This document shows positions 14,450 to 47,421 of a DNA stretch of 64,000 nucleotides, one piece after another. The stretch is from Chara braunii (taxonomy: Eukaryota > Plantae > Charophyceae), in NCBI GenBank assembly GCA_003427395.1, contig BFEA01000022.1, forward strand, positions 2,161,876 through 2,225,875, written 5' to 3'. The notes under the pieces are model-generated. The model had not been told where the DNA came from. It made no database searches and worked only from the letters and a program-made list of their open reading frames with translations. The stretch's first letter is position 1. Each line of letters opens with the position of its first letter. The position numbers and the translations under genes are program-made.

Positions 14450-14452
<3 letters not shown>

Positions 14453-14533: not shown

Positions 14534-14537
<4 letters not shown>

Positions 14538-18190: not shown

Positions 18191-18247
18191 GGAGGGTGAC
18201 TTACTTAAGGAAATCGAGTGGCCTGGCATTGTGCAGGGAGGGGAAAA

Positions 18248-19263: not shown

Positions 19264-21231
19264 ATGCAAGAAATCATCAAAGCAGCAATGGCAACAAGAC
19301 GTGTTCGAACGGTACGCCAGCCCCGGTACCCCGGCCCGCCCTGGAATAACGGCATAGGATGAGAAGTGTCCCTTCCGTCGAATGCCAACTTTCGGGGATT
19401 CGACGTGGAATGGTGGACCGTGACTTTGGGGAGAGACAGCGCCTTTATGTTGGTAGAATGTCGATGGACGGGGATGAGATTCAAACGAGGGCCTAGGGAT
19501 GATTTATTTTCCAATTTAGAAGTTACCGGGGTCATGTATCTACCCGAGATTGGCTGACACTCGCTGGGGGTGGGGATAGCACAAGGCCACGAGTTGGCCC
19601 TGGTCTTTCGAAGGGCCGCCCGGACGTTGACTCGAATAGGTCAATCGACCAGGGGTAGGAGGAACGTTGACTTACTCACTAGGGTGGAAATGGGGGGCTG
19701 GAGGGAGTTCAGGGCACCAACAACCCCGCTAAGGTGTCGGGTCCCCCGATTCATGATAGACCTCATCTTCGGGAGTCTCACAAGGACGCAGGATCTGGCA
19801 GACTCGGCCATAATCTAGGTAGATCACTTCCCGCCTCAAACCATCGGGATGTTTTATGACGTTGCTGTGGAGCATGGGCCGTTCTGGGGGCTGAGCCGGG
19901 TCTGTATCTCGCCCAAAGGAGTGGAAGACGTAGAGTCCATAGATGCTTTCCTTGAATACGAAGGAGGGACACTCGCGGTGGATAATGAAATGATGGACGA
20001 AGGGTGCGCGTCGGAAGAGTTGTTGATCCAAACCTTGGAAAAAGGGGCTCTTGTCGTAGTAGCAGAACTTAGAGAAGGACCAGTCACCACTCGAGGACGC
20101 AAGGAGGAGAGAGATTCATGGGGAGCGGTAATAGGACCAAAGGAGGAATTGATGGCAATGGCGGTTGAGGGAGGCCGGGAAGCTGTGATGACCCTGGTAG
20201 AGTCTTGGGAATGAAAATAGTTGCAGTGGATGGTAAACCAGATGAAGGAGGGAAAGGACGAGGTGCAAAAAGGAAGGGAGTTTTTCTATGCTCAGATATA
20301 CGAAGGGATTTTTCGGGAGATCGGATTGCTGCTAGTAGGAAATAGACAACCCATGAAAATCAGCCTTAGAGCGCCTTTCAAACTCATCGAGTCGTATCAC
20401 CAGGAGGCCAATGCACATGTGGAAAGGGGGCACCGGACCTTAAAGAACACGATTGTGAAGCTCGCAGCGGATCATCTGGGGAGTTGGCCTGAGTATCTTA
20501 AGCAGGCTATCTTCTCAGAGAACATGACACCTAAGAGGACAACGGGATGTATACCAGCGAAACTTTGGTACGGAAGAGAGATCGATTTTTCCGTAGAAGC
20601 CTTGATACCTACCTGGAACAGGTTAGATGATGATCCGCGTATGACCACGGAAGAGTTAATTGAGGCAAGATGTCAACAAGTCCTTAAGAATGAGTAGGTC
20701 ATGGAAGACATCGCCAATAGGGTACTAGACAACAGAATGAGGGACAAAGCAAGGTGAGACCAGGTTAAGAATATCCGAAAGGAACCACTTCAGGTGGAGG
20801 AGACGGTGCTGCTAAGAAACTCGGCACTAAAAAGTACTTGGTCCGGGCAACTAGGAAAGAGGTTCAAAGGCCCCTACCGGGTCGCCAAGCGGGTGGAACT
20901 GAACACCTTCGAACTGGAAGATTTGGATGAAACTGGATTGAAGGGACCCTTCCCGGGGCAACGATTGGTCAGGTTTCTAAGTCAGGACCTAGTGGAACAA
21001 TGGCTTCAGGAGGCCAAGGATAAGGAAACTGAGGGGCTACAAGCTAAGGGCTTACAACGGTCTGCCCACACTATGGTTTTGTCTCTGACTGCGTCTGTGG
21101 GACTGTCATTTTTTCGGGGGTTGGGGCAATGGTTTGGACCGACTGAAGTTAGAAGGTGGGATGTCTTGGGACCTTGCGATAACAGGTTTTGTGTGACGAC
21201 GGGAAAGATTATTGGAAGCATTGTATCATAG
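19264..21231 (+). pseudogene. Element A ORF-3: paralog 3 fused in frame to the pol RH-IN tether and the integrase C-terminal half
   Basis: 19366, 19570, 19849, 20221 and 20794 share one frame. GLSRV...SIDAFLE matches B's DGLSRI...PVDEFLE; YHQEANAHVERGH matches B's HPQANAPVERGH; the C-terminus has GPYRV. The HHCC finger and the first two DDE aspartates are absent. Confidence 0.8.
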
Positions 21232-21439
21232 TTTTTTATTGGAAAATAATAGGATCATCACAAATGGGGCATTTGTATGAGAAGGGAATGCATAATAGTG
21301 GCATGATGCAAAGGGTACGAGAAGCATTATGGGGAAAAGAGAAGTGCCTACCGGACTAGGAGAACGTGTGTATGAGGGGTTTGGCGGGTGTTGATTTTGT
21401 TATACAGGACCAGGAAGGAAGCACGAGAAAAGTAAAAAT

Positions 21440-22271
21440 GGAATTCGACAACGAGAATGATAGCGGAGCAATCAACAGACCTACCGAAGAGGGAGGAGCG
21501 GGACCAAGTTGAGAACGGAGGACTGCCAAGAGAAATTTGTACATAAGGTTCATGTCCAAACAGGTGGTAGGCAGGGGTGCGAGAAAGCGTGTGAGTAAAG
21601 GGTCTTCGCCTCTCGGGGAGGGAGAAGGCATATATATCTCATCCGGAAGTGGGAGCGAGGAAGAAAGGGCAAGTGTGGGAAAATGGGGTAAAGCGGATAC
21701 GAGAGAAAAGGCTCAAGCATCTGACGAGGGAGGGGTCGAGAGATGCGAACAGTATGAGCCTTTGCTTGAGGGGAACGAAGGGAGAGACGATAGGTGCGAT
21801 GAACGAGAGGATGGGGAAGAAAGAAGGAAAAACCCATATGAAGAGCGGAGTTGCCACGGTAGAGAACCTCACGGGTGGGTACAGCCCCATATAGACGGAA
21901 GAGGAGACAGATGAGGAAGAGGAAGTACAAGAAGTCATAGAGATGAGGAGTGGCGATCAAAAGGATGAAATCTCGAGGTCTAGAGAAGAAAGGCCTCTAA
22001 ATGGGAAGATGAGTTTGGGCCAACACCCAGTCATTCGTTTCAAGAATGGCTCAGTGTGATCAAGCATGAGTGGATTATCAAGACCAGGGAACTCGCGAAG
22101 GCAGGGGTGGCAACCACACCTTTGGACTTTTACAGTGAGGTGGAATTACAAGAAGTTGCGAGGATGAGGAGAGAGATCATGGCCTCTGGCCTGGGAGTTA
22201 AAAATCCAGCGGAAACGGGGGATGGGCAAAAAAACGAGCGGGGTGGGACACGTGACAATAATAGGGACTAA
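21440..22271 (+). pseudogene. Decayed extra ORF downstream of the integrase remnant, acidic/basic low complexity
   Basis: ORF pieces at 21537, 21649 and 22056 on +. No recognisable family. Confidence 0.35.
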
Positions 22272-25839: not shown

Positions 25840-25841
25840 TG

Positions 25842-28800
25842 TGTCAGGACTGGTGGGTCCCGAATAACTTCCCATCATTCGAGAGACTTAATACAAACAA
25901 ATTGTGCACTACAGAGAAATCTGGAGTAGGGAGGAAAGAGAGAGAAAAGACAAAGGATCAAGTCGCAGGAGGGAGTGATGCCCTGGAGTGAGAACCACAG
26001 GAGGAGAGACTCAGCGACGACACGCGAGTAAGCGCAAGAACAAGGGCACATGGAACATAGCATAAGGCCGGGAGGGCCATTAGAATTCAACAAGACTAAG
26101 GCCAAAGGGTTCTCGAACCAATAAACGCGGCACGACAGCGACAAAAGAATGAGGAAGTCGAGAGACGAACGGCCCCAGAGGCCGTGGGAAGCTTGAGAAT
26201 AAGGGTCCAACATGGGGGCCACCTACGACACCTACGGGAACCTTGAGTTGAAGGTCCGCGACCGAAGGGACCTGCGCGTGTGAGACACAAGAAAGACAAG
26301 GGAGAGGGGTCGCCATGGGGTGGAAAATGCCCAAGGAACATGGGACACCTTGGGGAAAGGCACCCGGGGCCATGCGAGACGAAGTAAAAATAATAGCATT
26401 CGGGACAAAATGCGTTGGGGACCACCGGCGGGATTAAGTGTCGGGGACCACCGGCGGGACTAAGTGTCGGGGACCGCCGGCGGGACTAAGTGTCGGGGAC
26501 CATCGACGGAAAATTGGCGGGGACATATGAAGGTCTCAAGAGGAAACGGTGGCACCACATGTGGAGAAAATAATTAAGACAAGGTGCACCGTCAAGATTA
26601 AGATTTTGACGGCCGAAAATATTAGCACCGCTAGTGCAAGCACTAACGGTAGCAAGCGGGAAGGCCAAAAGGAAAAGAAAAAACAAAGAAACATGGAGTG
26701 GGAGGCATGGGAGCAATCCAAAAAATCTCGGATCAGCCTCCCTCAAGAAAATGGAGTCAAAAGAGACCCTATGCGAAAAATGGGTCTCCGGGAGAAAATC
26801 GGAGTAAGAGGACCCTCTATGGGAGAGAGATAGAGGTAAGAGGAAGCTCACATGGGCATGAGAAGACCATTATTGCAGTCCAAGATATAACGGACTGCAC
26901 CTTGGGCATAGGAAGGGCCAAAACTGAGAGGAAGGGGATAGAAAAGGGCCTTAACGGTTACTTGACACTTGACATGCTAGGAAAAAGAAAGAAAAGAAAA
27001 GAAAATGTGGGAGAATGAGACAAAAAGAGTGAGAGGGAGTGAGTGAGTTGGCCGTCGGTAGGGACTGCCACAAGCAGGGACTGACAGGTCCCTACTGTCC
27101 AAGAAAGGAGAAAAAAAAGAAAAGAAAAGAAAAGAGAAAAGAAAAGAAAAGAAAAAAATGTCTTAACTGTAAAAAACGGTCACTTAGGGAGATACATTCG
27201 TGACCAGATTCATTCTGGAATATGGCGGTTGCAATGGACTTGGATTTTCCCTGATTTTTGCAGAGAAAATCAAAGAAAATCAAGACCCCATGCAACCGAA
27301 ATAAAACGGATTACATAGGGAAGTAAAAACACATGTTTAAGATGCATCCGGAGCCAAAATTGAGTCCGGATGCACTTGGGAGTTGGTCGTTTTCTTTTCT
27401 TTCAAGTAAGGGCAAGTTATGGGGCATTGGGGCTAGGAAATCGACCTCTATTGCAGTCCGAGTTGCAATGGACTGCATGGGGAAGGGAAAACACATGTTT
27501 TAGGTGCATCCGGAGCCAATATTGAGTCCGGATACACTTACAAATCAAAACCGTGTGTTGCAGAGGACGCATGGGCTAAGGAAAAATGAGCTACGGCAAA
27601 CCCAAAAAGTCTAGAAAGAAGTGATTTCAGCATAGGGTAAGTGAAGACAATAAACGTTGACCGTGAGATGAGATCTCACGGCCTAGAAAAATCGGCGCAC
27701 GTGTAGCACCTAAGGGAGAGATGTTGGGGCCACCAAGAGCAAGGGGATCAAAAAATAAAAATGGGACACCATCCGGGATGTTGCCGAGGACCAACTGAGC
27801 CAAAATAATAAAAGTCAAAAAATGGGACACGCGCCGGCGGGACTGCCAGCGGGACAAGACAATGAAACTAGTACGGAGGAAAGTGGCAGAAACATGAGAT
27901 GTCACAAGGGAACCATATGCCAACACCGCCGGCGGGACAAGAAAATGGAACTGGTATGGAGGAAAGTGGCGGAAACTTGAGATATCCCAAGGGAACCATG
28001 GGCCAACACAAGAAATAATTGCGCAAGCGAACGACACCATCGAGATCGAGAATCTAGACGGTGGAAAATATCAGCATCACTAGTGGGAGCAAATGAGACA
28101 GTCATGAGATAAAAGAGAATGAAATAATGGTGTTGGGAGGGTTGCCCGGCAGTCCGAGATATCTCGGGCTAACTAGGCATAAGAAAATAGAGTCTCAAGA
28201 GGTTCAACATGAGAAAAAGGCTGCCTTTAAAAAATCGGAGCAAAGGGGGCTTAAAATTTGACAAACGGAGACAAAATGGATCCCCCTAGGAGCATGGGGG
28301 TGTCATGGTTGAAATCCCAGATAAAAAGGTCAAGTACCAGCCATAAATCTGGCCATGAATGAGGCCCCAAGGCCTAGAATGAGGGTGCACAGCAGTTTGA
28401 TGTTTGTCACAACTGAAATAAAAGAAAAAGAAGAAAAAATGGGAGAAAATTGAGGGAGAATGAGATAAAAAGGAAGAAAAGAGTGGAGGAGAATATGTCG
28501 GCCTATTGGGACCTGCACAGTAGGGACTGGCAGGTCCCAACTGTGACCTCATCCCTCCTAGAATGGGGGAGGGCAATCCGGATTGCACTCCACAATATCT
28601 GAATTAAAAAGAAAAAAATGAGAGAAAATGCAAAAGAAAAATTGTCGGTTTTTTTTTGGACAATAGATCTGAGATCATATCTCACGGTGGAGAGGAACTA
28701 GCCATTTTTTTTTGGCCAGCTCAAAACGGCTAACTCCGGAAACTGTGCATTTTGCCCAAAAAGAGAGCCAGATGCACCAAAATTTGAAAAATTGGACTTA

Positions 28801-31800
28801 GGGGTTCAAATTTGAAGCAAGGGCTACTTGGGGGTAGCACGGAATATTGTTGACCTTGGATCTCAACCAGATCCAAGGCTGAAAATGCACCGCTGCATGG
28901 AAAAATATCTCGGTCGACCCAAAATTGTGTAAAAACTGAAAAAATCGAGAAAAAGTGTCACTAGGCTTTTTTGTCTCAAGTATAGCCCCTTGGGCATTAA
29001 GACCCAAGGGGGCAGCATTTTTGAAGTGAAAAGGAGGCCGAAGGAGGCCAAGAGGCAAACCGAGTTGGTACCAACCACTCGGACTGCATGTACTTGGCCA
29101 AAATGAGGCCCGGGTACCTCCGGAAGGGTCAATTGAGGGATTTTGCCTTGGGGGTACCTCGGTTCACCTCAAGGCACATGGGGAGGCCCATGGGCTGGCC
29201 GGACTGCTGGTTTCAGCCTACATAAGCTGGGAGTTCAGTCCGCTACATTCACAATTGCATGAGGAGTGCTCATGCTGCCCAAGTGAGTTCACAGAAGCAC
29301 TCTTTCACTTGGAGAGAGGAGAGGGGAACCCATGCCAGTGTGAGAGCTTAGAGGAGACTATGAGCTAAGAAGAAGAGCTCTAGAGGCTACTGGTAGTGAG
29401 GGTGGCACTGGGGAGGTGATCCGCCCTAGCCCCAAGGGTGTGAGGAGGAGGGAGAGGCTAGAGGGAGTCTCATTAGCCCTCCTGGAGGGAAGGACTCCAT
29501 GGCCATGGTGATAGGAGCTTGTGGCAACTTGGGAGAGGATAGGAGAGGAAGTGAGAGGCTTGAAAAAGAAGGGAGCCATAGCCAAGCAAGTGTTTGAGCA
29601 AGAAGGAAGAAGCCTCCTCAAGATTGAGACCCCATCTCCAAGGCACCAACAAGGTGAGTGAAAGGAAGAAGAGTTCTTTTCTCCTTTTTTTTTTTTTTTT
29701 TTTTTTTTTTTTCNNNNNNNNNNNNNNNNNNNNNNNNNNNNNNNNNNNNNNNNNNNNNNNNNNNNNNNNNNNNNNNNNNNNNNNNNNNNNNNNNNNNNNN
29801 NNNNNNNNNNNNNNNNNNNNNNNNNNNNNNNNNNNNNNNNNNNNNNNNNNNNNNNNNNNNNNNNNNNNNNNNNNNNNTCTTTTTCTCCTTCTTCTTCCTC
29901 CTCTTCTTCATTTTTCTTCCTCTTCTTCTCCTTCTTCATCTTCTTTATCTTCTTCTTCTTCTTCTCTTTCTTCTCTTATCTTCCTTCTTCTTCTTCTTCT
30001 TCCTATCTCCTTCCCTTTCATGTTCTTCATCTCCTCCTTCTTCTCCCTCTTCTTCTTCTCTTTGATCTACTCTACATCTTGCTTTTCACTCCCATGCTAG
30101 TAGGAGTTGCTCCGATTCTTTTATGGATGATTTTTTGCTCAATACTTGTGATTTAGTCTAGTGTAACTCTTGTTTTTCACTCACATGCTAGTAAGAGATG
30201 CTCCGATTCTTCCATGGATGACTCTTGCTCAAATCTTGTGATTTCGTCCAAGTGTAGATCAAGCTTTTCACTCATATGCTAGTAGGAGATGCTCTGATTC
30301 TTCTATGGATGATCTTTTGCTCAATACTTGTGATTTAGTCTAGTGTAACTCTTCCTCTTTACTCACATGCTAGTAAGAGATGCTCCGATTCTTCCATGGA
30401 TGGTCTCTTACTCAGAACTTGTGATTTGGACTTCGTGTAGATCTTGCTTTTCACGCATATGCTAGTAGGAGATGCTNCGATTCTTCTATGGATGATCTCA
30501 TGCTCAATACTTGTGATTTTGTCTAGTGTAACTCTTGCTTTTCACTCACATACTAGAAGGAGATGCTCTAATTCTTCTTTGGTCTAGTGTAGATCTTGCT
30601 TTTCACTCATATGCTAGTAGGAGATGCTCTGATTCTTCTATGGATGATCTCTTGCTCAATACTTGTGATTTAATCTAGTGTAGATTTTGTTTTTCACTCA
30701 CATGCTAATAGGAGATGCTCCGATTCTTTCATGGATGATCTCTTGCTCAAATCTTATGATTTGGTTTAAGTGTAGATCTTGTTTTTCACTCGTATGCAAG
30801 TAGGAGATGCTCTGATTCTTCTATGGATGATCTCATGCTCATACTTATGATTTGGTCTACTTCAGTTTTGCTCTTCACTCTCATGCTAGTAGGAGATGCT
30901 CCGATTCTTCTACGGATGATCCCATGCTCAAAACTTGTGATTTGGTATACTTCAAGTCTTGTTTTTCACTCATACACTAGTAGGAGATGCTCTGATTCTT
31001 CTATGGATGATCTCATGCTCAATACTTGTGATTTTGTCTACTTCAAGTCTTGCTCTTCACTCTCATGCTAGTAGGAGATACTCTGATTCTTCCATGGATG
31101 ATTTCATGCTCAATACTTGTGATTTGGTCTACTTCAAGTCTTGCTTTTCACTCACACACTATTAGGAGATGCTCTGATTCTTCTATGGATGATCCCATGC
31201 CCAATACTTGTGATTTGATCTATTTCAAGTCTTGGTCTTCACTCTCACGCTAGTAGGAGATGCTCCGATTCTTTCAGGGATGATCTCATGCTCAATACTT
31301 GTAATTTGGTTAACTTCAAGTCTTGCTCTCCACTCTCATGCTAGTAGGAGATGCTCCGATTCTTCCAAGGATGATCTCATGCTCAAATCTTGTGATATAG
31401 CCTAGTATAACTCTTGCTTTTCACTCACATGCTAGAAGGTGATGTTCCGATTCTTTCATGGATGACCCTTTGCTCAAATCTTGTGAAATAGCCTAGTGTA
31501 ACTTTTGCTTTTCACTCACAAGCTAGTAGGTGATGCTTCGATTCTTCCATGGATGATCTATTGCTCAATACTTGTGATTTGGCCTAGTATAGATCTTGCT
31601 TTTCACTCACATGCTAGTAGGTGATGCTCAGATTCTTTCATGGATGATCTCATGCTCAATAGTTGTGATTTGGCCTAGTGTAGATCTTGCTTTTTCACTC
31701 ACATGCTAATAGGTGATGCTCCGATTTTTTCATGGATGATCTCATGCTCAATACTTGTGATTTGGCCTAATGTAAATCTTGCTTTTCACTCACATGCTGG

Positions 31801-33155
31801 TAGGAAATGCTCTGATTCTTCCATGGATGATCTCTTGCTCAAATCTTGTAATATAGTCTAGTGCTTTTCACTCACATGCTAGTAGGGGATGCTCCGATTT
31901 TTTCATGGATGCTCTCATGCTCAATACTTGTGATTTGGTCTAGTATAGATCTTGCTTTTCACTCACATGTTAGTAGGAGATGCTCCGATTCTTCCATGAA
32001 TGATTTCGTGCTCAAGAATTGTGTTTTGGAACTAGTCTAGCTTGTGTTTTTCACTCACATAGTACATGATGACATTCCATTTCAAACTTGGTTGCATTCA
32101 TGAGCTCTGATCATGTGTTTGAGCAAGTCTCACTCACATGCATGGCTCGACTCTCACAATATGACATCCCGTTTCAAACTTGGTTGCATTCGTGAGCCAT
32201 GAGCATGTGTTTGAGCAAGTCTCACTCATATACATGGCTCAACTCTCACATGATGACATTCCTGTTCAAACTTGGTTGCATTCGTGAGCCATGAGCATGT
32301 GTTTGAGCAAGTCTCGCTCACATATATGGCTTAACTCTTACATGACGATATTCCGTTTCATGCTTGGCTGAACTCATGAGCCATAAATATGTGTTTGAGA
32401 AAGTCTCACTCACATGCATGGCTCTACTCTCACATTGATGACATACCGGTTCACACTTGGTTGAGTTTTTCCTCATGTGCATTTATGTTCACTAGTTCAC
32501 ACCTCTCCTTGTCAAGTTCATGTGTGTTCTAGTATTCTGGTTCATACTTATTTGATCCTTCCTTCATGTGCATGTGACTCTCACTAGTTCAATCTTCTCA
32601 TTGTTAAGTTCGTGAGTGTTGCAGTGTTCCGGTTTGTACTTAGTTGATCTCTCCTCCGTGTGCATGTGTTTTTCATTGGTTCAATCTTCTCATTGTCAAG
32701 TTCGTGAGTGTTGTAGTGTTCCGGTTTATACTTAATTGATTTCTCCTTCATGTGCATGTCCCTCTCACTAGTTCAATCTTCACATTGTCTAGTTCGTGAG
32801 TGTTGCAGTGTTCCGGTTCATGCTTAGTTGATCTTTCCTCTATGTGCATGTGCTCTTCATTGGTTCAATCTTCTCATTGTCAAGTTCGTGAGTGTTGTAG
32901 TGTTCCGATTCATGCTTAATTGATCTTTCCTCCATGTGCATGTGCTTTCCGTTGGTTCAATCCTCTCGTTGTCAAGTTCGTAAGTATTGTAGTGTTCCGG
33001 TTCATACTTAGTTGATCTTTTCTTCGTATGCATATGTTTTTCGTTTGTTCAATCTCCACATTGTCAAGTTCGTGAGTGTTGTAGTGTTTCGGTTCATGCT
33101 TAGTTGATCTTTCCTCCATGTGCATGCGCTCTTCATTGGTTCCATCTTCTCATTG
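25842..33155 (+). repeat. 3' LTR of element A, truncated within satellite III
   Basis: Colinear with 5768-12949. Arrays: I ~30075-32050, II ~32050-32480, III ~32480-33155. Confidence 0.85.
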
Positions 33156-33589
33156 CCTTAGGGGCCGGCCCTGTTATCGACTCAGAGTGGACCGCTTTCT
33201 GGGGCGGGTACCATGTTGTTGCGATGGAGCCAGCACGACTTCTGAGTTCCGGGGTTCACTCGAGCGAGGACGAGGGGTATTCTAGACGACCTCCTAGGGG
33301 AATGAATAAAAGCATCTTCACGGAAGGACTTTAAGTTTTTGGTGCCTTGCGTAAAGAGGAATTGCCTTAGCACTCCCTTGGTGACCATTCTAGGAGCCAC
33401 TGACGTATGGGGAACTGGAGCCACAAGCAGCTCAGTTCGTGTCCTACTAGCCAAACGGAGTGTATTTAGATACTCCCAATGTGACCGGTCGTGCCATAAG
33501 AAGCACAGGCCAGAAGAAAGACAAATGTTTTAATAATAATCAGTAGACAAAAATTTTAACTTCATCACCTTTGTCCTTCCTTCTTTCAG

Positions 33590-34102
33590 ATGGCTGCGGG
33601 GACGACGGTCTGTTACCTTTTCCGCAATCGTGATGCAGCGACGGAACGGGTCGCGTCTCAAAGAATTAACGGAGAAAGATTAGAGAGAATAGGACGGCTC
33701 GTCTACAACCCTTATGAATTATACTCAGAGGAAGATGTTTTGCGGTTCTGGGATGGCAGTGCGCGAAATCCTCCTAGGCGACTTCTTTTCAGGTCAAGAA
33801 CCGGTCTGGAAATTCTTCACTACGAGTTCTCGCCACCATTGCCCGATCACGATTTCGCCAACATGAACTTAGTAGTGATGCAACCGTATGAGATAAACCC
33901 GCGAATGGATGAGATACATGAGATAAGGTAAACGTTCGTCCGCTCCGTAATTTGGTTGAATGAACGGCAGGGTCCTTTCTTTGGCATATATCATACAAGA
34001 CGGGTGCGGGCAAACAGGTTCATTGTTCTACGAGTTGAATTTTTCTCTGAGTATGCTTGGCAGAACGAGGAGGACGAACTCATGGAACGTTTACGCGACT
34101 AA
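33590..34102 (+). pseudogene. LTR cargo ORF-a (~170 codons, one internal TAA), unknown function
   Basis: MAAGTTVCYLFRNRD...; the frame stays open past TAA 33929-33931 (TFVRSVIWLNERQGPFFGIY...ERLRD*). Preceded by TTTAAC-polypyrimidine-CAG|ATG. Confidence 0.65.
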
Positions 34103-34125
34103 CGCAGTTTTGTTCTAACACGCAG

Positions 34126-34674
34126 ATGCCTAGAGCACGGCGAGACTTGACGACCCCGATGTACCTGCTTGTTCACGACACACACGAGGATGACCTTATT
34201 AAAGGAGCAGAGCAACTTTTGCGAGTTTGAGACGGTTCTCCTACTGAGTGGATCGGCTTCATCAGATTATTATACGGCGAGGGTTTTTTTCCCAATACTC
34301 GCGCGGATTTTCGGGCAAATACAGCCCGGACTCAGGATGAGTTTTTTGGATATACTTTGTATTTCCACCATGCGATCAATCTCCAATGTCTCTCCCGAGT
34401 CATTGTGAGTATTAAGATTATCTCGTCCGTCCGGCGTTTCGGTGTCGTCCGGATCCGGGATACAGAGGGCCAACACTTGTTTGGACTTAGTCGGCCTTTT
34501 CGGGTCATAGTGTGGAGACTAGCCTTACGGATGACCTCCCTCTATGGTACTCAAATCGTTAGAGTCATGCGAGGTGGGCAAGTGACAACCCTGGTATTCG
34601 ACGACAACGAGTGTGCGCGTTTGGATTTGCTGGAGGTAAAGGTGCACGGAGGACGACAGATTTACCAAGGTTAG
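34126..34674 (+). pseudogene. LTR cargo ORF-b (~182 codons, one internal TGA), unknown function
   Basis: MPRARRDLTTPMYLLVHD...V*DGSPTEWIGF... is in frame with ORF 34357-34674. Preceded by TTCTAACACGCAG|ATG. Confidence 0.65.
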
Positions 34675-35901
34675 ACGCCGCTTTCTGGAAATCTTATTCG
34701 GATTTCAGGAAACCCATTGCATAGATTAATCCCATCGAGGAAGCCATATAAATTTAAGGCTTCACGAGGTAATCTCAAAAACAAAAACAAAAACACTCCA
34801 TATAGTTAGAACCATCGGATGGATGGTATTCGGATTACCCCGATGATTTCACTATCATGCTTATGCATTGAGGGGTAATCGATCGCTTAAAAATAAGCTG
34901 AGTAAAGTGAAAAACGAACATCTGAAAAATATGCTAAGCGTAATAACGAGGATAAAGTAGTGGGAGACGGAACATTTTTGTGTGGAGTAACTTAGTGTTG
35001 GAGATGAATACTCCATCATTTTTGGAACAGAAAGAGTAATTATTGTTCAGGAGGACAAAGCGACCAGCAAAATTTCATTCGCACTTCCAAGTGGTTGTAT
35101 ATGGTGCGAAGCTGTGGTCGAACCAAGAGTTCAAACATCGACTAGGAACCTGACCACTTGTTGATCTGCATGGTAGCAGTGGTATTTACTTGCAAAAGTT
35201 ATTTATGACGAGCTTCAACAGTCATGATAGGAAGATCAGTCCTAGTTTGTTCTTCAATTAATAATCTTGGAATGACAATATAAACGTTCTGCAGTCATAC
35301 ACGTTGAAAAGAAGCACTTTGGCAGGTCAGCTCATCAAGTCAATGAATTAAATTTGCGTAATTTTTATTAAGCTATATGGATTCTTTTGTTTTGTTCGAT
35401 CGTTAGGGACTAGGATTGTATCTGAAAGCTTCACGCTTGGTTGAGATTGTCCTAGTCGACCGATGTATGCTTCGTACTCGGGAGATCGACGCCCCAGGAA
35501 ATGAACGGCGTTCGGGGTTACTCGGCGTTAACCAAACATTTTGTATACTGCAGCGAGACGAGCAAATGCCCTCGGCTGATCTACCTCTACGATTGCATTT
35601 AAAAACTTTCGCACGTGGGTCAGTAGCTCGGTAGGGATACGCCCCTAAGGGTGGAGACAGCCTCTTAGGGAAGCAAGCTTATGCCCCGCGAAAACCTATC
35701 CTGTCGTAGGAGACTGCAGGATGAATAGCTGGCGCACCCGGCTAGAGTGGTGAAGGAGCGATGCAACCACGTCCGTCTCGGCGACTCGCGAAATGTTATT
35801 CATCGTCCCTGAGTTGTCTCATGAAGTATGTTTTGTTGCTACTCCTGCGTGACATGGTCGGGAGGACCCTCGCACGCGCGAGGGCCGATGCGCTCAACGG
35901 G

Positions 35902-35919
35902 TGGCGTTGTTGCCGGGGA
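35902..35919 (+). other. Primer-binding site, tRNA-Asp type
   Basis: TGGCGTTGTTGCCGGGGA versus canonical TGGCGCCGTTGCCGGGGA (two C>T changes), 2 nt after the LTR end. Confidence 0.8.
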
Positions 35920-36105
35920 TAATGGCAAACTACCGTTGTCCCTAGCAGAACGACACTTGGGTGATTGATGGAGCGAAAAGTTGTTTTCTTTTTCTTGTTT
36001 AACCTCAGAAAAGTCAGTAATTTGATCCCAAAAGTATGAGATTTAATTTTACAGAAAGGTTGACTGATTTTTGTTGAATATGTTGTTGTGATTTTGTTAC
36101 TCAAG

Positions 36106-37500
36106 ATGTCTGATAACAACGACAATCAGGATGAGAGAAGAAATGATATTCGGGAAATCGCGAGGGTCATTCAGCATTCCCAGAAGGAGCAGATCCCGAA
36201 GGTTGACGTTCCTTTATTTGATAGTAACAACGTATCGGGATGGGCAAACAAGTTTGAACAGTTGGGGAGTTGCTGTGAATGGTCCAAAGAGAAGATGTTG
36301 CGAATGGTAAAAAGATACTACAAGGTCAAGTATAAGGAAGAGGTGGAGGAATTGGTATGAGGTTCGCGGGACTGGCCAGAGTTCAAAGGAAAGCTGCTAG
36401 AGAAGTATCAGTTGGGCGACCAACTGTTGGATTTAGCGGATTTAAGGAAGGTTAGTCGGCGGAACTTTGGTACGACAAAGCAGTTTCTTACTGAGTTCGA
36501 GCGGGTGGTGCGGTTAGTTCCTGACCTCCCAGACAAGGATCGTTGTCTTATCTTCCTGGACAATTTCACGGAAGTAGAACAGCGAAAGCTGGTGAAAGGG
36601 ATGCAAGGACGATATGACTGGCCGACGATTCGAGAGAACTTGCTGGCCGGAAATTTTGACCAGATCCTCTACCGACTGCTGAAACAGCAGAAGGAGGATC
36701 GGGAGAGGGTATACTTGGGAACGGATAAGGACAAGAAGGTCTACAAGACCTTATCAGACATGAAGGAGATGATGACCAACATGAAGGAGGAGCGACTAAA
36801 AATCCAAGTGATGATGGCCAAGGCAAAGACATGAAAGAGAAAAGGGAAGGAGCCAATTACTGAAGAACGTAGCAGTGAAAGTGACAGTGAGGAGGAAAAA
36901 GAACCCCCTGATCAAGGCTGAGAGGAAAGCTTTGAACCAGATACGAGGAGGGCAGGGTACTTCTCGTAAACGAGGGGAAAGTAGTAAGGATGAAGGAAAT
37001 GGAAACGGGGAGCGGCAAGTTGGTCAGGGGCAACAAAACCAAGGTCACCATGCTCAACCACAGGGTGGTCGAGGCCGTGGTAGAGGCCGCAAAAACGGTG
37101 GCGGACATGGGAACTGGCAGGACTATGTCTCCAAATATTGTGATATGAAGGAACACGTTATTCATTTCTGCCAGATCCTCGCCAAGGATGAGAAGGACCA
37201 GATCATTTTTACGACGATTCGGGGAGAAGTCTTTGATTTTGAAGGGAATCTTATCGATCAGACCATTGAAGGGGGGATGAGAAAAGAGGTTTTTCAACCG
37301 ATGGGCCGTTCTCTTCCGGCTACATTCCACTTAGCTTCTCCTGAAAAAGCAAGTCTTTTTGAATTGGAAGAGACAACGACTTCTTTGGAAATCAGTGACT
37401 GTGAGGAAAAAGAATTGGAGGAAAGGAAATCGGGCATGAGAAGTGACCAGAAAACTGGGCAAGTGTTGGGATTTCATTGTTTAGTTATGCATTGACATGG
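36106..37500 (+). pseudogene. gag: Gag of element B
   Basis: IPKVDVPLFDSNNVSGW gag-like N-terminus; RG-rich segment; degenerate zinc knuckle SKYCDMKEHVIHFC. Contains stops and frameshifts. Confidence 0.8.
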
Positions 37501-39131
37501 AAGAAGTTTGGCCCAACCTTCCAAATGTGTTCTTCTTTAGTGGCTGGGGAAACGAGGGTCAGGATGGGTCAGCACCTGCGGTCACTTCGGCGCCTGAAAC
37601 AACGCCGATGGCTCGGCCAATGGCGATATCCAAACCTTTGCTCAAGTGAGGACGCTAACTATTATGGTGCAGACGCGAAAAGGAAGGAAGACGTCACAAT
37701 CACAGCCTTCGCCAGGAGAAAGGAGCCTATTAAGGTAGAGGATGGAGAAGATGAAGAGGATGAAAGATTGTGTGTGGAATATGAACAGCAGGCGAACCAG
37801 AGGGCTATGGAGAGGAATTCGGAAAAGGGGAAGACTAAGGTCAAAGAAGAGGAGCCTCGCAAGAAAAAGAATGTATATACAATCCCGGTGGAGAAAGGGA
37901 TTGGTTTTGAGCAACTTGTGGACCTTATTTTGGAAAGTCAACGCGATTTGATTACTCTTAGGGAGATTTTGTTTGTTTCGCCAAAGCTCCGTGAGGAGTT
38001 TAAGCAGAGCAAGACTCGAAAGAAAGTCATGACAGTTAAGCTAAGTGAGATCATTCCTCCGGAGGCTAACTGGGCGCCTCCTGGAACAAAGATGGACTGG
38101 CGATGTGCAGCCACTGGTCTTATAAAAGTTCAAATCGGTCGTGGAGAGTTTTCTGCTCTTGTAGATGACGGGGCCGAGATGAATATTATGAGAGAGAAAC
38201 ATGCGATCGAGGCTGGAATACAGATCAATCGCAATGATTTTGGATTTTTGGTTGGAACCAGCAGTGCAACTCCATTTTGTTGTACAGCTAGTGGAGTAAT
38301 GGTCACGGTCGGGAAGGTCAAGGCGAGATCGTATTTTTATATTTTACCAAAGATGGAACACAAGGTGCTCTTGGGAAGATCATTTCAGTATCGCACGGAG
38401 AGCATAATCTTCAACAAACATGACAGTACCATGTTTGTGGTTTTGTGTGATCCGGTTTGCGGCTACTATGAAGTCGTGAGATGCGCGAATACCGGACCGG
38501 AAAATTCAAGGAACTGGCTAAATCCCGAGTCATATACCTTCTCGGAGTCAGAGAAGTTGAGGAGGGAGAAAGAGGCAATCGAAGAAGAAGGAGATCCTCA
38601 TGAGTTCTCATTGACATTGCCAGATATCTCGCAGACAGTCGATTTTGTATCAACCCATCCTGCAATTGATCCAAGCCTGGTATAGGCCCTGATGGAGGTT
38701 GTGGCCGACGAAGGGGGTGCGGGGACCATGCATCTCGTTTACCGACCAAATGATTCTGGTGTGGAGGAATCTCTGCCATCAGCCAGGCAAGAGTTTTTTT
38801 TAGAGGACGGAGGCTCAGCGTTGGGTCAAAAAGGAAGTATAAGAAAGTAGGCGAGAAGGTTCGGCCAATGCCAGTTCTGATCACTCAGGAAAAGAAGGTG
38901 TATTATAAGGAAGAACGTGAGTGGATCAGAACATTGAAGAAGAAATGTGAGAAAGGGTCGTGTCGGCTGACAGATGACAGGATCAAGGAGATGATCATTG
39001 GAGAGGATGACCTCCTCACTAAGGAGGAAACCCATTTTTTTTTCAGCGTTATGAAGAAGATTCATTTGGCTTATGTCTTTCATGATGATGCGCGTGGAAG
39101 GCTGGACGTCGATATGATTCTGATGATCCGG
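37477..39131 (+). pseudogene. pol: Aspartic protease and RT N-terminus of element B
   Basis: ALVDDGAEMNI and VLLGRSF motifs. The frame ...LDVDMILMIR is cut by insertion C. Confidence 0.85.
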
Positions 39132-41429
39132 TGTCGAGCGCATCGGCCCCCGCGCGAGCGAGGGCCCTCCCGGCCGCGTCACGTAGGAGAAACTTAGCCT
39201 TTTAACTTTTTAGAGACAACTCGGGGACAACACGATAACCCGTGCCGACCCCTCGCCGCTCTGGCCGAGTGCACCAGTTGTACATCCCACGGTCCCTACG
39301 ACAGGATAGGTTCACGTGGAGCACAACTTACCTTCCCTAAGGGGTTGTCACCACCCTTAGGGGCGTATCCCCACCGAGCTACCGACCCACATGCGAAAAC
39401 TTTTATAATGCAATTGCAGAAGTAAGTCGGCCGAGGGCGTTTGCTCATTCGCTGTAGCATAGGTACGCATGGTTAAACGCCAAAGTGGACCCGAACGTCG
39501 TCTGTCCCTGGGGCGCTAATCTCCCAGGAATTGGACCAACGTCGGTCAACTAGGACGTGATATTCCAAGCGTAAGGAAAACTGCGAGCGATCCTAGTCCC
39601 TTCTTTCAAAGACAATCGAAAGCTACTCAGACAAAAACTCATGTCAACGTAAGTTGACTTATTTTCTGAAATCGGTACAATCATGCATACTGCTCGTTTG
39701 GGCTGTCACGACTTTCGCCTTGATGAGATGCGTTGCCAAATTTTTTCATTCCACCCCATATCAACCGCTAGAAAAGAATGCAGACAATTCTCAATACTCA
39801 AGTAGAGCTAGGATGTCATTGCTTTAATGATGACTTCACTACTTCTCTAACTTTGGTGTGAATGCCATCTGCAATTAATCTGGCTACCACTATACAAGTC
39901 AGTACTCGACTTGAACAACCGAACACTAGATGCCCTATCAAGGTCAATGATCTACTTTTAAATTTCGTTGGTCGCTTTGTCCTCCTGGACAATAATTACT
40001 CTTTCTGTTTCACAAATGATGAAGTACCAGCTTTGGACATGAAGATATTCAAGGCAATACTCTATTAACATCTTCCCGTCAACTAGTCTGATCACCCCAG
40101 GTTTGCACTTCTTATGGTGCAACCCTATCCGCGAAGGTATTGCCTAGTCGCACTCCGTCCATAGCTAGTGATCGCACGAACTGGGCTTCTTATGGCGCCA
40201 ACTCCTCACTCATCTGTGGCTCATAAGACGGTCACTAGAAGGGTAAACTATAGCGGTTCTTCTTAACGTGAGCCGTCAAGAACTTAACGCCTTCCGTGAA
40301 TAGCACACGTCCATCCCCTAGGAGGTGGTCTGGGATACCCCTCGTCCTCGCCCGAGCGAGCCTCGGATCTCAGAAGTCGGGCTGGCTCCACCACGACAAC
40401 ATGGTATCCCCCCGCCTAAGCGGTCCACTCCGAGTCGTTAACAGGGTCGGCCCCTAAGGCAACGAACCCCCGCCTCAAATGGCTCCTAGGGAAAGGAAGT
40501 GCACTTACCACATCAGACGGTCACCCCTTTATCGCCTGACCTCAAGGCGAACCTAGACGAAGAAGGAGATCATAGAGAAGAAAAATATTCAAATGGAACG
40601 GCATGGATAGAGAGGGACATTCAGGAAAGAATGGGTAACCTCGGGAAAAACCTATGTCCGATTCACTTCTTCTCCTTTGTGTGATCGCTCCGTTTCTCGT
40701 CGTCTACTGTCTTCCCACCCCTTCAGCATACACATAAGTGAGTGACAACAAAAACAATCATCATCCCTTCGCTTTCGCTGCCATGATCAGATCTCTCCTT
40801 TTTTTTTCTTTTTTTTTTTTTCTTTTTTTTTTTCTTTTTCAGGCATTCGTCGACTTACCTGCACATCAGATCAGACAGACAAATTCAAAACCAACACAAT
40901 GCAAACCCATTCTCAAGTCAGACTCTCATTCACACGCGCATGCACACATCTCCTCTACCTTTTCAATGAACGTTCAAAGAACAGGGTCAAGCAAGTGTGG
41001 GTTCACACAGGCGTGAAGGGAACTGAGTCAGGATAACTGACCTTGCGTGACGTTGAACCAAAGATAGCAAACGGCCCACTCAAGAAAGCCGTATAAACCA
41101 TATTCTAAATGAGAAGATCGCCGCAGTAAGCTTTCAGAAAAGTGATCCACACCACTCCCTCAAGGATCGCTCACTGACACGCAATCCCCTCACTGCCTCA
41201 ACGTTGTCACGACTCGCGGCCAGTACCACTATGCCACTACTGTGTCGAAGCGTCACCACCGCAATATGCGGACAGCACAACGTCAACACCACCTCAAAAC
41301 ACACATCCTCTTAATGACACCCCTCAAAATTGTTGTCGCCGTCGCGAAGACCGGACAACATTTTAACACCAATGCTAAATAGTTGCTGCTGCCGCACAAT
41401 TCCGGCAGTGCTTCCGCGTCACCGCCAAA

Positions 41430-41745
41430 AAAGCACAGCCGCCGTGCTAAGCGGACAGCACCTCCCCTACACACTTCTCAAAAATGGATGCCGCCGCCGA
41501 AAAAGTCACACAGCGTTTCCCCTACACTCCTCCAAGCGCAGCTGCAATAGCCGTAATAGCCGCGCAACACCCCCCAACACAAAAAAGTTGCCGCCGTAAA
41601 AAACAGGCAGCATTTCCCCTATGCCACTTGCCGAAGACCTGCCGCCAATGTGCAAAACCGGCAGAGTTTCCCCTGCGCCGCCTGCCAAAACCCTACCGCC
41701 ACCGTGCAAAATGGGCGGAGTTTCCCCTGCGCCGCTTGCAGTCCT
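41430..41745. repeat. Degenerate ~54-bp tandem repeat in LTR C
   Basis: CCGCC..GTGCAAAA..GGCRGAGTTTCCCCTGCGCCGC units: 3 clear copies plus decayed ones. Confidence 0.7.
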
Positions 41746-42771
41746 CCGACACTCCTTCCTCCTCCTTGCTGAGATGGCAGCTATGGCTGTACTCCACAGC
41801 TATGGCCACCACTAGCAACTTCTTTCCCCTCACACTGCAGACCTCCCTCGCCGCCAACAGCTCCTCTCAGCAGCAACACTTACTTCTCAGCAGTCAGCCA
41901 ACATTCTCACAAGTGAGAGTCCAGAAACAATGCCAAGTATGCTTGCTGCTGGCTGGTCGCTGGCTGCCTTTATAGCCAGTAGAAGGGCTGAGGCAGCTGC
42001 TTTGCCTTAGCCGTTTCACGAATTAGGGTCTGGCCCTCGATCGGAATCACGATCAAGGGTCAGAAATACTGTTGTTCCTCGAAGGGAACCCAGTTCAGAC
42101 CACTGGGAATGCATCTGGCCTTCACCCACGGCCAGACGCAGCCAAGAAATGGTTGTACTCAGCCATTTTTTAGCAGACTGTTGAGACCAACAGTCTGTTG
42201 TCTATTCATAGTCCAGATGTTTCTAAACTTGCATCTGGACTGAGGCCGCGGCTAGATCCGCGGCCGTTTCCCCTTCTTTTTTTTTCCCAACTTCTTCTTT
42301 TCTTCTCCTTTCCTTTTTTTTCTACCCCCTCGTTTTTCTAAAGCAGGGGCAGCTCGTCGTTTGAAAAACGAACGAGCAAGTCCCCTCCCCCAAGTCATTT
42401 CATAGAGTCGAACAAGAGTCAAGCTCAACAGGGTCTTTTTTCCCACTGCCTCCACGCGTCCGTCCCCGGACGCAAACCGTGCCAGGTTCGAGCGCACTGC
42501 AAATGCTGCAGCCCGTTTCTAAAATCGAACAGGCGCAGCAAAATAAAACTTAAATAAAATAAATTTAAAAAAACAAAAACAAAAACAAAAACAAAAATAA
42601 ATAAAGAAGAAGATCGAAAACAAATGAAAGAAAAAAAATCAACTTACTTGTTTGTCGTCACGTCGCAATCTCCGTCAGGTAAGACACTCCTCTCCTCCTC
42701 CTCCTCCTTCTCTCTCTCTCCCTCTCTGCCTGAATACAGCCGCATTTGTGCGGCTGATTCGGTCGGGTTAA

Positions 42772-42828
42772 CCGACTGTCGAGGCTCAACCTTCTGATGA
42801 GTCGGTGGAAGCCCGACGAAACAATCGG
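42772..42828 (+). ncRNA. Type III hammerhead ribozyme motif
   Basis: CCGACUGUC^GAGG-CUCAA-CCUU-CUGAUGA-GUCGG-UGGAAGC-CCGAC-GAA-ACAAUCGG. Complete catalytic core, GUC cleavage triplet and three helices, with one C-A mismatch in helix III. Confidence 0.8.
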
Positions 42829-44423
42829 GCACAGCCACACCCGTTTGTCTGAAATGAACGGGTGCTTAGNNNNNNNNNNNNNNNNNNNNNNNNNNNNNNN
42901 NNNNNNNNNNNNNNNNNNNNNNNNNNNNNNNNNNNNNNNNNNNNNAAAAAAAAAAAAAAAAAAAAGAGGAGAGAAAAAAGTAGAAAAAAAAACGAACTCA
43001 CCTCGTGGATGGTCAATCGCCTGTTTTCAGGGCGTTAGCACCCTCTGGGCCGAGGTCTCACTAGCAAAAAAAAGGATAGGATCGAGATCCTGAATTTGGA
43101 TGTATCTTACGCAGAGATGCAGAAAAGCAGTTCAACCTCGATTCCCTGTACATCTCCATAATCTCGTTCAGATTTAGGTATTCGATCCAATCCTCTTTGC
43201 TAGTGGAGCCACGCCCTTGGGGACTTCACGTCCCTTTCACTTCTGACAGGGTCAGGTGGCGCTTTGTTTACAGTTAGATTAGGTTGTCTTTTCTTTGTGT
43301 TTTTTTTTNTTTNTTTNTTCGTTTTGTTTTTTTTTTTTATCCCGTTCGTTCGTATTCCATCGCCATGCATCAAAAAGGAAAGAATAAAAAAAATCAAAAA
43401 AAAAAACTAATAAAATCTAAGGAAGAAAACCAAGAACCCGAAACTCCTACCTTGCTTGACAGGTCGCCCGTTTTCACGGGCACCTGCACTATTCGTGGGG
43501 ACTATAAGTCCCCATTACTTCCTATCGCACCACATGGCGCCTTAGTTATAGTTAGATTTTTTTTTTCCGTTGGCTTATACCAACGGCCAGTTCCCAGCAC
43601 ACTGCGTGGCTTTTCAGCCACGCCCCCCCCATGCCACGGACCCAAGTTCGATCCCCGTGGGATCGAAAGAAAAAAAAAAATTGGGGTCCCTCCTCGATTT
43701 ATGTGTGTCATCCCTGCGCAATGGCCATGCTCATCTCTCCGCGCGGTTGTTCCTGACCGTGCTATCTCAGCGATCGCATGACCGAAAACGGCCGCGCCGA
43801 AAAGGCTAGGCCGCTCCAAAAGGAGCTTTGCCCATTAGGTCCACATGTTAGGTTTGATCATGGTATCTGTCGGGTGAAAGTTTGGCACTATAACCTACTG
43901 GGCTAGCTCCTATCACAACAATGATAAGAGCAACTCTTCTATATGAAGAGCTTGTCCATCCAGTTAACACCTTGCAGCGGCCTTGCAGGCTCAGCCTGCC
44001 TGCGGCCCTCCATGCTTGGCTGCCCGTGTGGTCTCGGCACCGGCCTATCAACCCCCTGGCTCGGTGTCAGCCCCCGTGATCCTAAGATTAAAACCCTTCT
44101 TTTTATTCACCCCTGCGATGCGGCTCTATACCCGGCGCACCCCTATTTTTTGCCTACTTTAGTCTTTCCATGACCGCGCACCACTGCGGCCTTGTCGGAA
44201 CCGCAGACGACCGGTCGTACCACCGACCCATGTCGTTTCGAACAAACGTCGATGACGTCTCACGTCAACGACGTCAGGCTTTAGGTCTCTCAGTTATAGG
44301 GTTGGTCTGAATAACTTTGGCAACGTCAACCTCATCAAGTCTCCCAATCCAAAAGGTCGGGCAGCGTCTAACCTTGAAAAACTCGGGCAGAAACCCTCAC
44401 AGGGGTTTCTGTCCCGACACCGG

Positions 44424-47421
44424 ATCCATACGGTACCGCATCAGCCATGGAATGTGAAGGGTCCACGATATCTGAATCCGGACGATCACCGGAAAGTGGT
44501 TGATTATCTTGATGGTAAGGTTCGGACCAAAGTGGTTGACTATTCGTATGGGCCATATGCGTCTCCTTGGTTCTGCTTTATCAAGCCAAACGATGTTTTG
44601 CGATGGGTCCAGGACCTGCAAAAATTGAATTCTGTAACAGTCCGAGATGCGGGCGGAGTTCCGAACGCCGACCAACTCTCGGAATCTTATGCAGGCAGGC
44701 CCATCATCACCCTAATTGATTTATATTCAGGATATGATCAATTCCCGCTGTACACAGCGGATCAACCTATGACGGCGATGCATACGCCTCGGGGACTGCT
44801 TCATATATGCGCGGCTCAACAGGGTTGGAATAATGTCGTGGCAATTGTGCAGAGATATATGATGAGAGTCATGCAGCCACTTTGTCCGGACGTGACCTCT
44901 CCATATATCGATGATTTGGCCATCTCAGGACCTCGAGTCAAGGATGAGACTGAAGTGTTATCCGGCATTCGAAAGTTCGTGTGGGAACACGTCAGAAATG
45001 TGGAAAAGGTTCTAAGGAAACTAAAGGAATATTACCTCACTGCTAGTGGGGTTAAATCAAGGCATGGTATGAGGAAGGCGGTAGTACTGGGGTTCCTTTG
45101 TGATGAAAAGGGTCATCGGCCAGATGCCAAAAATACGAATAAGATCTTGGAGTGGCCGACTCCCTTCAGATCTATTACCGACGTTCGAAGCTTCCTTGAA
45201 ACTTGCAGATTTTGGCGTATTTTTATCCGTAGGTTCGCAGCAAGAGTGGAACACTTGCGGAAATTGGTACTCAAGAATCAGATTTGGGAATGGCGACCGA
45301 GGCAGCAAGCGGTCGTTGAGGATATTAAAGCTGAATTTTGAGAAGGCGGCCTGATTTTGGGAATTCCTTATTTTGATGATGCTGAAGGCCGTCCTTTCAT
45401 CATCGAAACTGATGCAGGTCCTACCGCTTTGGGAGGATTTTTTATTCAAAAGAATGAGGAAGGACGAGAACGGTCATTGAGATTCGAGAGCAGAACTCTG
45501 AATATTGTTGAGCGGAACTACTCTCGGTTCAAGAAGGAAACTCTCGTTGTGCTTCCCTGTCTGCGTATTTTTAGGAATTATGTATTTGGCAGGCGGTTCA
45601 ATCTACGAGTCAATCCTACGGCTCTGACTCAATCGCTGAAGAACTATTCTCCTTCCGATCCAACCATTGCTCGATGGCTGACATACATGCGATGTTCAAT
45701 TTTGAAATTGAACGTATTTCAGGCACTCAGAATCGTGTAGATGGGTTGAGTCGCATTGATTGGGACTCGTCGACGGATCAGGCTGAGGATTCAGTCCCTG
45801 TGGATGAGTTTCTGGAGAGAGAAGAGTCGCAATTAAATATCAACTCATATATTTACTTGGCGGATGCAGTTGCTCAACATGGGAAGACTATTTGGAATAC
45901 TCCTAGCTTCCATCATGGGCGACCTGAGTTAGTGATGGGGGAGCCATTCATTGAGGAGGACCCATGGGGTGAAAGGACATCAAAGCAAATGATGAGCTTG
46001 GTTTAATCCGATGAAATCGAGCTTATCAATGAGTCGCTGGCGATAAAGTATGGGCACAAGAAAGTTGATAAGACATACATGATCGCTGGGGAAATGTCTT
46101 TTCTTGTGAACTCTTTGATTCATGAAGACCGTCTGAGAATGATGAATGAAGAAGCAGAAGGCAGTGAGATCAGAGAAGTTTTCAGGGAAGGAGAGTATGA
46201 TGGGGAGTATAAGTTGATGGGAATGTGTTTGGATGGTGAGTTGAGGGAAAATGACGTGGATCCAGTTGTTAGCCAAAAGAGCAAGGATTTTGTTGTACGA
46301 TATGGTCATCTTCTTAAGAAGTCTGACGATGGTATTCTGAAGAGAGTGGTATGTGGGGTTGCGCGGCAACTTCATGTGATTGCAGCTTTGCATGATGGGG
46401 TCGCAGGCGGACATAGATCAGCACGAGTTACTTTGAAAAGATTCAACATCTTTATTTTTGGGAAGGAATGAGCAAGATGGTAAATGACTTCTGTAAATCT
46501 TGTCTTCATTGCCAAAGGCGATCTAATCTGCGTTTTGTTGAACCTCTTAATCCACGCTATGTGGCTGAGCCGGGAGCAGTAGTACACCTTGATCTATTGG
46601 TTATGCCACCTGGGATTAAAAGATACAGATATATCTTCAATGCAAGGGATAATCTGACTGGGTTCGTTGATGGTTGTGCCATTGGCGTGCGTAGTGGCAT
46701 GTTTTAGCATTGTGCATCAAAGAATATTATCTTTGGTACCCGTTTGTCCGGGAGTTTGTCATGGATCAAGGTGGTGAGTTTCGGGCTGGGGAAGTGCAGG
46801 CGCTTTTGAAAAGACTTGGAGTAAGCTTTAGTTATACTACAAGGGCACATCCTCAGGCAAATGCGCCGGTTGAGCGTGGACATGTCACTCTAACAAATTT
46901 GTTAGCAAAATAGTGTGCAGATGATCCTTCAAGATGACCAATATATCTGAGGACGGCATTCTTTGTTGAGAATGTCACCATAAGGCGGATAACTGGATAC
47001 GCTCCAGTCACGTTGTGGTTTGGGCGGCACGCAACTTTTTCGATCGAAAGTTTTCTGACCACTTGGCGAAAGCAGGATGTGGAAACGAAGCTTTCAACGG
47101 AAGAGTTGTTGGAATTGAGGGCAAAACAGGTGATGGTGAGCGAGGAAAGAGTTGAGGAGGTCGCTGCAGGCGGACAAGGAAATATGGGATAAGAGGCCAT
47201 GTGTTCGTAAGAAACCTTTGGAAGTCGGGGATATTGTGCTTCTTTATGATTCGTCCTTGGAAAAACAATGGTCGCGAAAATTGGACAGTCGATGGTTGGG
47301 ACCCTATCGTATTGTTAAGAGATTTGAGCATGGGGCTTATGAGATTGTAGAGATGGATGGGGCTCGAGGTAGAAATTGGGTGTTGGGATCGCATTTGAGA
47401 AAGTTTATTCCAAGGACTTAA
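44424..47421 (+). pseudogene. pol: RT, RNase H and integrase of element B
   Basis: RT: DLYSGYDQ, YIDD. RH: IETDAG, NRVDGLSR. IN: HDGVAGGH..CLHC, VHLDL, MDQGGEF, VERGH, WLGPYRI. Scattered stops and frameshifts; no chromodomain seen. Confidence 0.92.

Follow-up and report, generated by a model that had tools for sequence, protein, structure and literature searches.

The window analyzed here is a stretch of 64,000 nucleotides of Chara braunii DNA (contig BFEA01000022.1). It contains a retrotransposon, element B, and a solo LTR, C. The surviving 3′ part of the B 5′ LTR lies on the plus strand at 33150–35899; it ends in CTCAACG, as compared with CTCGACA in C, and its homology blocks to C are 72–91% identical. 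The LTR is truncated at 33150, where it joins a 92-bp array of another element. A PBS-like sequence (35902–35920, plus strand), which we take to be of the tRNA-Asp type, starts with TGG 2 nt past the LTR end. The gag and protease region of B follows on the same strand at 36106–39131, with the gag ATG at 36106 and Pfam matches to Retrotrans_gag (E 0.013, below cut-off) and gag-asp_proteas (E 2e-6). Solo LTR C (39132–44419, minus strand) was inserted in the B pol; it is 5,288 nt long, runs TGTCG...CGACA and is flanked by a 4-bp target duplication. The rest of pol (44424–47421, plus strand) encodes RT (RVT_1, E 2e-12), RNase H (RT_RNaseH, E 1e-19), the integrase zinc finger (Integrase_H2C2, E 1e-8) and core (rve, E 0.0014), and an SH3-like end. 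The start of the presumed 3′ LTR of B (50101–50956, plus strand) consists of four blocks homologous to C 44419–43694, and this homology ends after about 850 nt, before the region of interest here. LTRs of the B/C family measure 5.3–6.7 kb.

The Pfam domains run in the order gag-PR-RT-RH-IN over 36361–47421, with gag and rve scoring below the curated cut-offs. C has TG...CA ends and a target duplication, and the PBS-like site of B stands just past the end homologous to C. Judged by this arrangement, B is a decayed Ty3/gypsy-type element.

Several other repeats were seen in the window. The C target duplication is CCGG (39128–39131 and 44420–44423), and CCGG (5763–5766) also precedes a repeat that starts at 5767. 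This repeat (5767–14313) and a second one (25841–33155) are direct repeats of 7–8.5 kb, 80–89% alike, each with 91- and 92-bp tandem arrays. They are probably a different element's LTRs, and the second abuts the B LTR at 33150–33155. A type III hammerhead match lies inside C, antisense to the LTR (42773–42827, plus strand; E 4e-6, with 40.5 bits against a gathering score of 48.5). LTR C also carries, in its upstream part, a U6 snRNA-like fragment (43676–43741, minus strand; E 1e-5, below the gathering score). Because a homologous piece occurs in the B 3′ LTR (about 50921–50956, plus strand), this fragment may be a fixed part of the B/C LTR family.

According to the original prediction, the B LTR holds about 1.45 kb that LTR C lacks. 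The absence is real, but the size and edges had to be corrected: C 40116 matches both B 33495 at the DNA level and B 34919 in a gap-free register, and therefore the missing stretch measures about 1,424 nt (about 33504–34927). We refer to it as the cassette. It belongs to the LTR and precedes the PBS-like site, because the 3′ end of C itself aligns to B 35898. C has a TATA box at 41974, and therefore the cassette slot would lie beyond the LTR promoter, in R/U5, and be transcribed.

The same prediction had named an unrelated TE insertion with its own TSD as the alternative to an LTR module. No TSD or TIR was found at the cassette edges: exact direct repeats of at least 7 nt and a terminal inverted repeat were absent, and inverted matches were limited to scattered 8-nt ones. 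The cassette may still be an old, decayed nested DNA-transposon insertion. More generally, one LTR subfamily could have captured a piece of host sequence or received an unrelated transposon long ago, in which case the acceptor-like sites described below would be relic exon sites. The absence of the cassette from C and an imperfect 9-nt direct repeat at its edges (6/9) agree with such an origin, which we nevertheless regard as improbable; besides the edges, it has against it that no match to host or TE families was found, and that captured internal exons are not expected to start with ATG twice.

The cassette holds two ORFs on the plus strand, and frame analysis confirmed them as first described, with one stop apiece. 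ORF1 (33590–34102) has 170 codons and its stop is at codon 114; ORF2 (34126–34674) has 182 codons and its stop is at codon 35. Each starts at the first in-frame ATG past the preceding stop. The frame of ORF1 contains a single stop, whereas each of the other two contains 10. When 33520–34990 was simulated 3000 times under a dinucleotide model, a pair of such near-open frames appeared twice; of 218 real tiles of the window, gag and pol included, seven had such a pair. ORF1 and ORF2 have no detectable paralogy, and no second copy of either was found in the 64-kb window. We rejected an antisense reading frame, since each antisense frame has 4–14 stops, and, for the shared flank on the left, a coding ORF, since the differences listed there lack codon periodicity (judged by eye).

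It had been proposed that each ATG directly follows a branch-point-like motif and CAG, and the sequence bears this out. Acceptor-like site 1 (33550–33589, plus strand) consists of a branch-like TTTAAC, a 90% pyrimidine tract and CAG. Acceptor-like site 2 (34097–34125, plus strand) consists of GACTAAC, which overlaps the ORF1 stop, a T-rich tract and CAG. The use of both in splicing is putative. On both strands of the window, CAG stands directly before 28 of 2523 ATGs. The full acceptor pattern (YAG, at least 55% pyrimidine and a branch-like YTRAY) precedes three of the 2523, and two of these three are the ORF1 and ORF2 starts; the 55% cut-off was chosen after site 2 had been seen. By pyrimidine content, acceptor 1 is a strong site, within the top 0.4% of the 8317 AGs; acceptor 2, in the top 29%, is moderate only. 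The gag ATG of B is likewise placed behind an AG (AAG) after a T-rich tract.

Sense-strand donors upstream in the family LTR were also part of the prediction. They exist in C, at 40858, 40508 and 43001; since the B LTR is cut off at 33150, they are known from C only. Solo LTR C is laid out as a donor, a 306-nt intron with its acceptor at 40553, a 44-nt exon and a second donor. The donor at 43001 is upstream of the C TATA box and therefore probably lies outside the LTR-promoter transcript.

Both ORFs could also be real element genes whose proteins are made from one polycistronic RNA, unspliced or spliced once, through leaky scanning or re-initiation, with acceptor 2 incidental. Such translation is compatible with the short distance of 23 nt from the ORF1 stop to the ORF2 ATG, with the moderate quality of acceptor 2, and with the RNA and DNA rows shown, among which no junction was seen. 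Leaky scanning to ORF2 is disfavored by the many ATGs in the interior of ORF1, and against this reading as a whole, both starts follow CAG and a branch-like motif, a class of three among the ATGs of the window. We consider this reading unlikely, if less so than a captured or inserted passenger.

Other copies of the cassette were sought in three DNA runs of one sample, from which 1548, 1402 and 1435 contigs aligned to 33430–35020; the depths given here do not equal copy number. All 30 bins of the three runs were covered over the cassette, mostly by contigs 80–95% alike. The proposal of a module that varies between LTR types is thus supported, since many diverged copies exist in DNA and C lacks the cassette. 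One piece of another copy bridges acceptor 1 and the ORF1 ATG (33486–33725; 31 differences, no gaps), and another bridges the ORF1/ORF2 junction (33941–34184). Among the listed pieces, none bridged either cassette edge under a 31-letter rule. Depth was continuous across the left edge and went down to about 70–220 beyond 34942; therefore, the right flank differs in most copies. The intron-like bin 33538–33591 had a depth of 191–276 versus 395–1156 for ORF1.

The ORF2 core and a conserved hairpin block of about 60 nt (34818–34880) were far deeper in the DNA reads than ORF1. The block reached 14,000–22,000 versus about 400–1,200 over ORF1, which is roughly 15–40 times as deep. It has an 8-bp inverted repeat, its fold z is −2.3 on the plus strand and −2.9 on the minus strand, and RNA reads also cover it. 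In other copies its flanks are dissimilar, and it is common to many more repeats than the ORFs. These depths, together with the fall beyond 34942, leave room for a passenger origin, as parts of the cassette may occur in other contexts.

The evidence that ORF2 is a gene comes from a predicted protein and from diverged copies. The Chara braunii protein CBR_g49381 (P0003) has the same start Met and is 60% identical to ORF2 over 106 columns, the likeness covering its first ~80 residues; it has a one-codon insertion relative to ORF2 and reads through the position of the ORF2 stop. Its second half is an RFC1-like (RFC-type) AAA lid domain. This junction of an ORF2 start with a host-type domain could be taken to favor a captured fragment, but we infer that CBR_g49381 is most simply a gene-prediction chimera; alternatively, a host clamp-loader gene may have acquired an LTR exon by splicing. 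No further homologs of ORF2 were found among longer proteins, metagenome contigs, viral contigs and PDB, and in a structure-atlas search with residues 1–82 of CBR_g49381 no match scored higher than 0.77 by features or TM 0.47.

Variation in ORF2 was examined in the loose ends of aligned contigs. Eight of the 24 loose ends shown (of 905) fall in ORF2; three near-duplicates and one that needed a gap were dropped, and four were kept. These four distinct gap-free variants have 34 differences from the window; third positions account for 20 of these (P 0.002), and the change is synonymous in 14 of the 23 codons affected (both counted by eye). The variant behind 34467 shows no third-position bias (5/14). 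Among 12 indels shown of 22, eight are in ORF2 and mostly pair to +3 or 0 by matching depths, four are outside both ORFs and are all +/−1, and none is in ORF1. ORF2 varies like coding sequence, and the preservation of its frame across diverged copies stands against a passenger origin. Among 40 majority differences shown (of 662), 24 are inside the ORFs, with six synonymous and four third-position changes, which is a neutral-looking ratio. Because nearly all other copies agree against B at these sites, we read them as probable decay of copy B itself at sites kept in other copies.

For ORF1, the evidence for coding is indirect. Four overlapping pieces from other copies, those listed for their length, have 28–36 differences each (129 in total) and no gaps, where non-coding repeat pairs of the window lead one to expect 5–18. 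ORF1 has no Lys versus 6.2 expected (P 0.00025, in a post hoc test), and 24 Arg; Lys-free windows of 170 codons numbered 83 of 5989, and the B gag and pol segments are Lys-rich. No homolog was found by near-length word search, HMMER over 1.84 billion representatives, Pfam, PHROGs or viral contigs, and the single row against PDB sequences had E 1.9. The expectation of intact copies elsewhere was thus borne out in part: ORF2 is open across its stop position in CBR_g49381 and shows coding-type variation, but no copy of ORF1 open across codon 114 was found among the listed DNA contigs. Like plant eORFs and aORFs, ORF2 occurs in many copies and is conserved as coding sequence; for ORF1 the evidence of this is indirect. 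Taking both ORFs together, we think it very probable that they are genuine element-borne genes.

A third, decayed ORF may be present in both B and C (34919–35164, plus strand; C 40116–39810), and we assign it low confidence. It aligns to C gap-free over 53 codons, of which 18 are identical, seven synonymous and 28 non-synonymous, and RNA reads of a C-like copy read through the position of a C stop. Other copies have 1-nt indels at 34917 and 34930, which argue against it. There was no Pfam match for this stretch.

Expression was followed in three poly(A) runs (X6, X7 and X8; 6–13% of each) and one contig set, aligned to 32900–36600, and X7 was re-aligned to 33430–35020; the leader donor exon is outside these stretches. 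In X6 and X8, reads of one strand (sense if the libraries follow common convention) lie over both flanks of the slot and depart from B at 33442 and 35007 into C-like letters; therefore, cassette-less copies are transcribed through this part of the LTR. Sense depth just past acceptor 1 was 0 in X6, 0.11 in X7 and 0 in X8. Cassette reads came mainly from X7, on both strands, with the antisense orientation the larger share. Neither 33590 nor 34126 had a spliced joint or a loose end among the 24 of 243 and 24 of 905 loose ends shown, a comparison of low power.

These reads bear on a further alternative, that the cassette is ancestral but unused, with C-type LTRs being still-transcribed deletion derivatives and B-type genes dead everywhere. 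Such a state would explain the stop in each ORF of copy B, which shows decay of this cassette, the C-like origin of the stranded sense RNA, and the 80–95% likeness of most DNA contigs. It is nonetheless compatible with past function, and the fraction of each raw RNA run that was aligned gives low power; we judge it no more probable than a passenger origin.

The products were predicted to resemble no recognized family, and the Pfam, PHROGs, PDB and viral searches returned no family match; for ORF2, the best E was only 0.09 in Pfam and 0.08 in PHROGs. Metagenome contigs gave no match to a DNA pattern taken from the shared LTR. AlphaFold models were unusable (pLDDT 30.5 and 33.5). The highest 19-residue hydropathy was 0.31 for ORF1 and 1.40 for ORF2. 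An env-like role was rejected, as there is no transmembrane segment and the ORFs are inside the LTR, not between pol and the 3′ LTR. Residues 86–95 of ORF2, within its most shared core, resemble the Elongin C-binding helix motif of BC-box/SOCS-box ligase adaptors; no SOCS_box was matched in Pfam up to E 1.

The reading that we prefer is that this LTR carries two small, multi-copy, likely coding accessory genes, made by splicing a shared leader to either acceptor, and we give it an even chance as a whole. An LTR promoter upstream, homologous to the C TATA box, would produce a single RNA through the R/U5 cassette. The leader exon would end at the homolog of donor 40858, and would be joined, either directly or through the 44-nt exon that ends at 40508, to the acceptor at 33589 or 34125. 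There would be one mRNA per ORF, each ATG being the first base of the last exon, and the unspliced RNA would serve as genome. The Arg-rich proteins would act in trans for the element. As first put forward, the idea of an accessory module with alternative acceptor choice holds for the multi-copy LTR module and the coding-type variation of ORF2; the splicing part had no spliced read among the rows shown, and donors in C only. If the genes are real, their expression by these two acceptors is slightly favored.

Two roles can be suggested by analogy. With strong splice sites in its LTR, the element would have to protect its unspliced RNA, as Cer1 does through CERV, and hence our first guess, a tentative one, is a Rev/CERV-like handling of intron-containing genomic RNA by Arg-rich proteins. 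A second and less likely guess is a ligase adaptor that removes a host restriction factor, which would follow from the absence of Lys in ORF1 and the BC-box resemblance of ORF2; through its lack of Lys, ORF1 would be shielded from ubiquitylation. In the accessible part of the source, lysine deserts guard some proteins from ubiquitylation and are noted in viral proteins (10.1101/2022.12.08.519562).

A broader form of the preferred reading is also possible, though we hold it with more doubt than belief. The LTR may be a self-contained, swappable expression cassette with a promoter, a leader donor and an acceptor ladder in which every acceptor yields its own orphan accessory protein, among them a lysine-free one. 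Even solo LTRs scattered in the genome would then supply trans-acting factors for the family.

In HIV-1, a shared leader is joined to alternative 3′ acceptors for vif, vpr, tat, rev and nef. MMTV sag, HIV nef and the foamy virus bel ORFs are in or overlap U3 and are expressed from the 3′ LTR. The B cassette resembles these complex retroviruses in having ORFs within LTR sequence and, if its putative acceptors are used, in an acceptor ladder ahead of small accessory ORFs. It differs in that no env or sequence relationship was found and in that ORF1 and ORF2 would be downstream of the promoter, not in U3; expression from a solo LTR would therefore be possible. The usual view of LTRs, solo ones included, is that they are regulatory and non-coding. 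If confirmed, protein genes in the transcribed part of an LTR, with retrovirus-style alternative acceptors, would make solo LTRs possible active gene sources. LTRs with and without the cassette offer a natural comparison for the function of retrotransposon accessory proteins. In the openly accessible literature, we found nothing on the B/C family or on plant or algal LTRs whose R/U5 holds protein ORFs expressed by splicing.

CERV of Caenorhabditis elegans Cer1 is an accessory protein made from a spliced mRNA and needed for export of the unspliced genomic RNA, according to the accessible text (PMC10309623). Its relation to ORF1 and ORF2 is one of analogous logic only. Phygy elements of moss are described, in the portion available, as short non-chromovirus Ty3/gypsy elements with an NCGN insertion preference and a polyprotein that fills the interior (PMC6317226). 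The CCGG target duplication of C fits NCGN and suggests a similar target preference, but the B/C LTRs are far from short at 5.3–6.7 kb; this comparison is by target site and description.

In maize, spliced LTR-contained transcripts of three exons with a short middle exon occur, and the sections available report them as non-coding (PMC13192763). B and C are like maize in having predicted introns inside the LTR, with a short middle exon in C, and unlike it in that the acceptors open onto ORFs with coding-type variation. Non-chromovirus elements of large size, whose LTRs reach ~5 kb, are also known, as is the Bagy2 env-like ORF expressed by splicing (accessible parts of PMC6317226 and PMC7264820). 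The same parts describe the extra ORFs of plant Ty3/gypsy elements as element-borne, of no known family and heterogeneous between families, located internally on the 5′ or 3′ side of gag-pol, with a survey cut-off of at least 250 codons (PMC6317226; PMC7264820). As orphan element-borne ORFs that are heterogeneous between families, ORF1 and ORF2 are comparable to these eORFs and aORFs. They differ in being inside the LTR, upstream of the PBS and 170–182 codons long, and so fall outside the definition in the text available. Their distinguishing trait is the position inside the LTR, which sets them apart from extra ORFs between LTRs.
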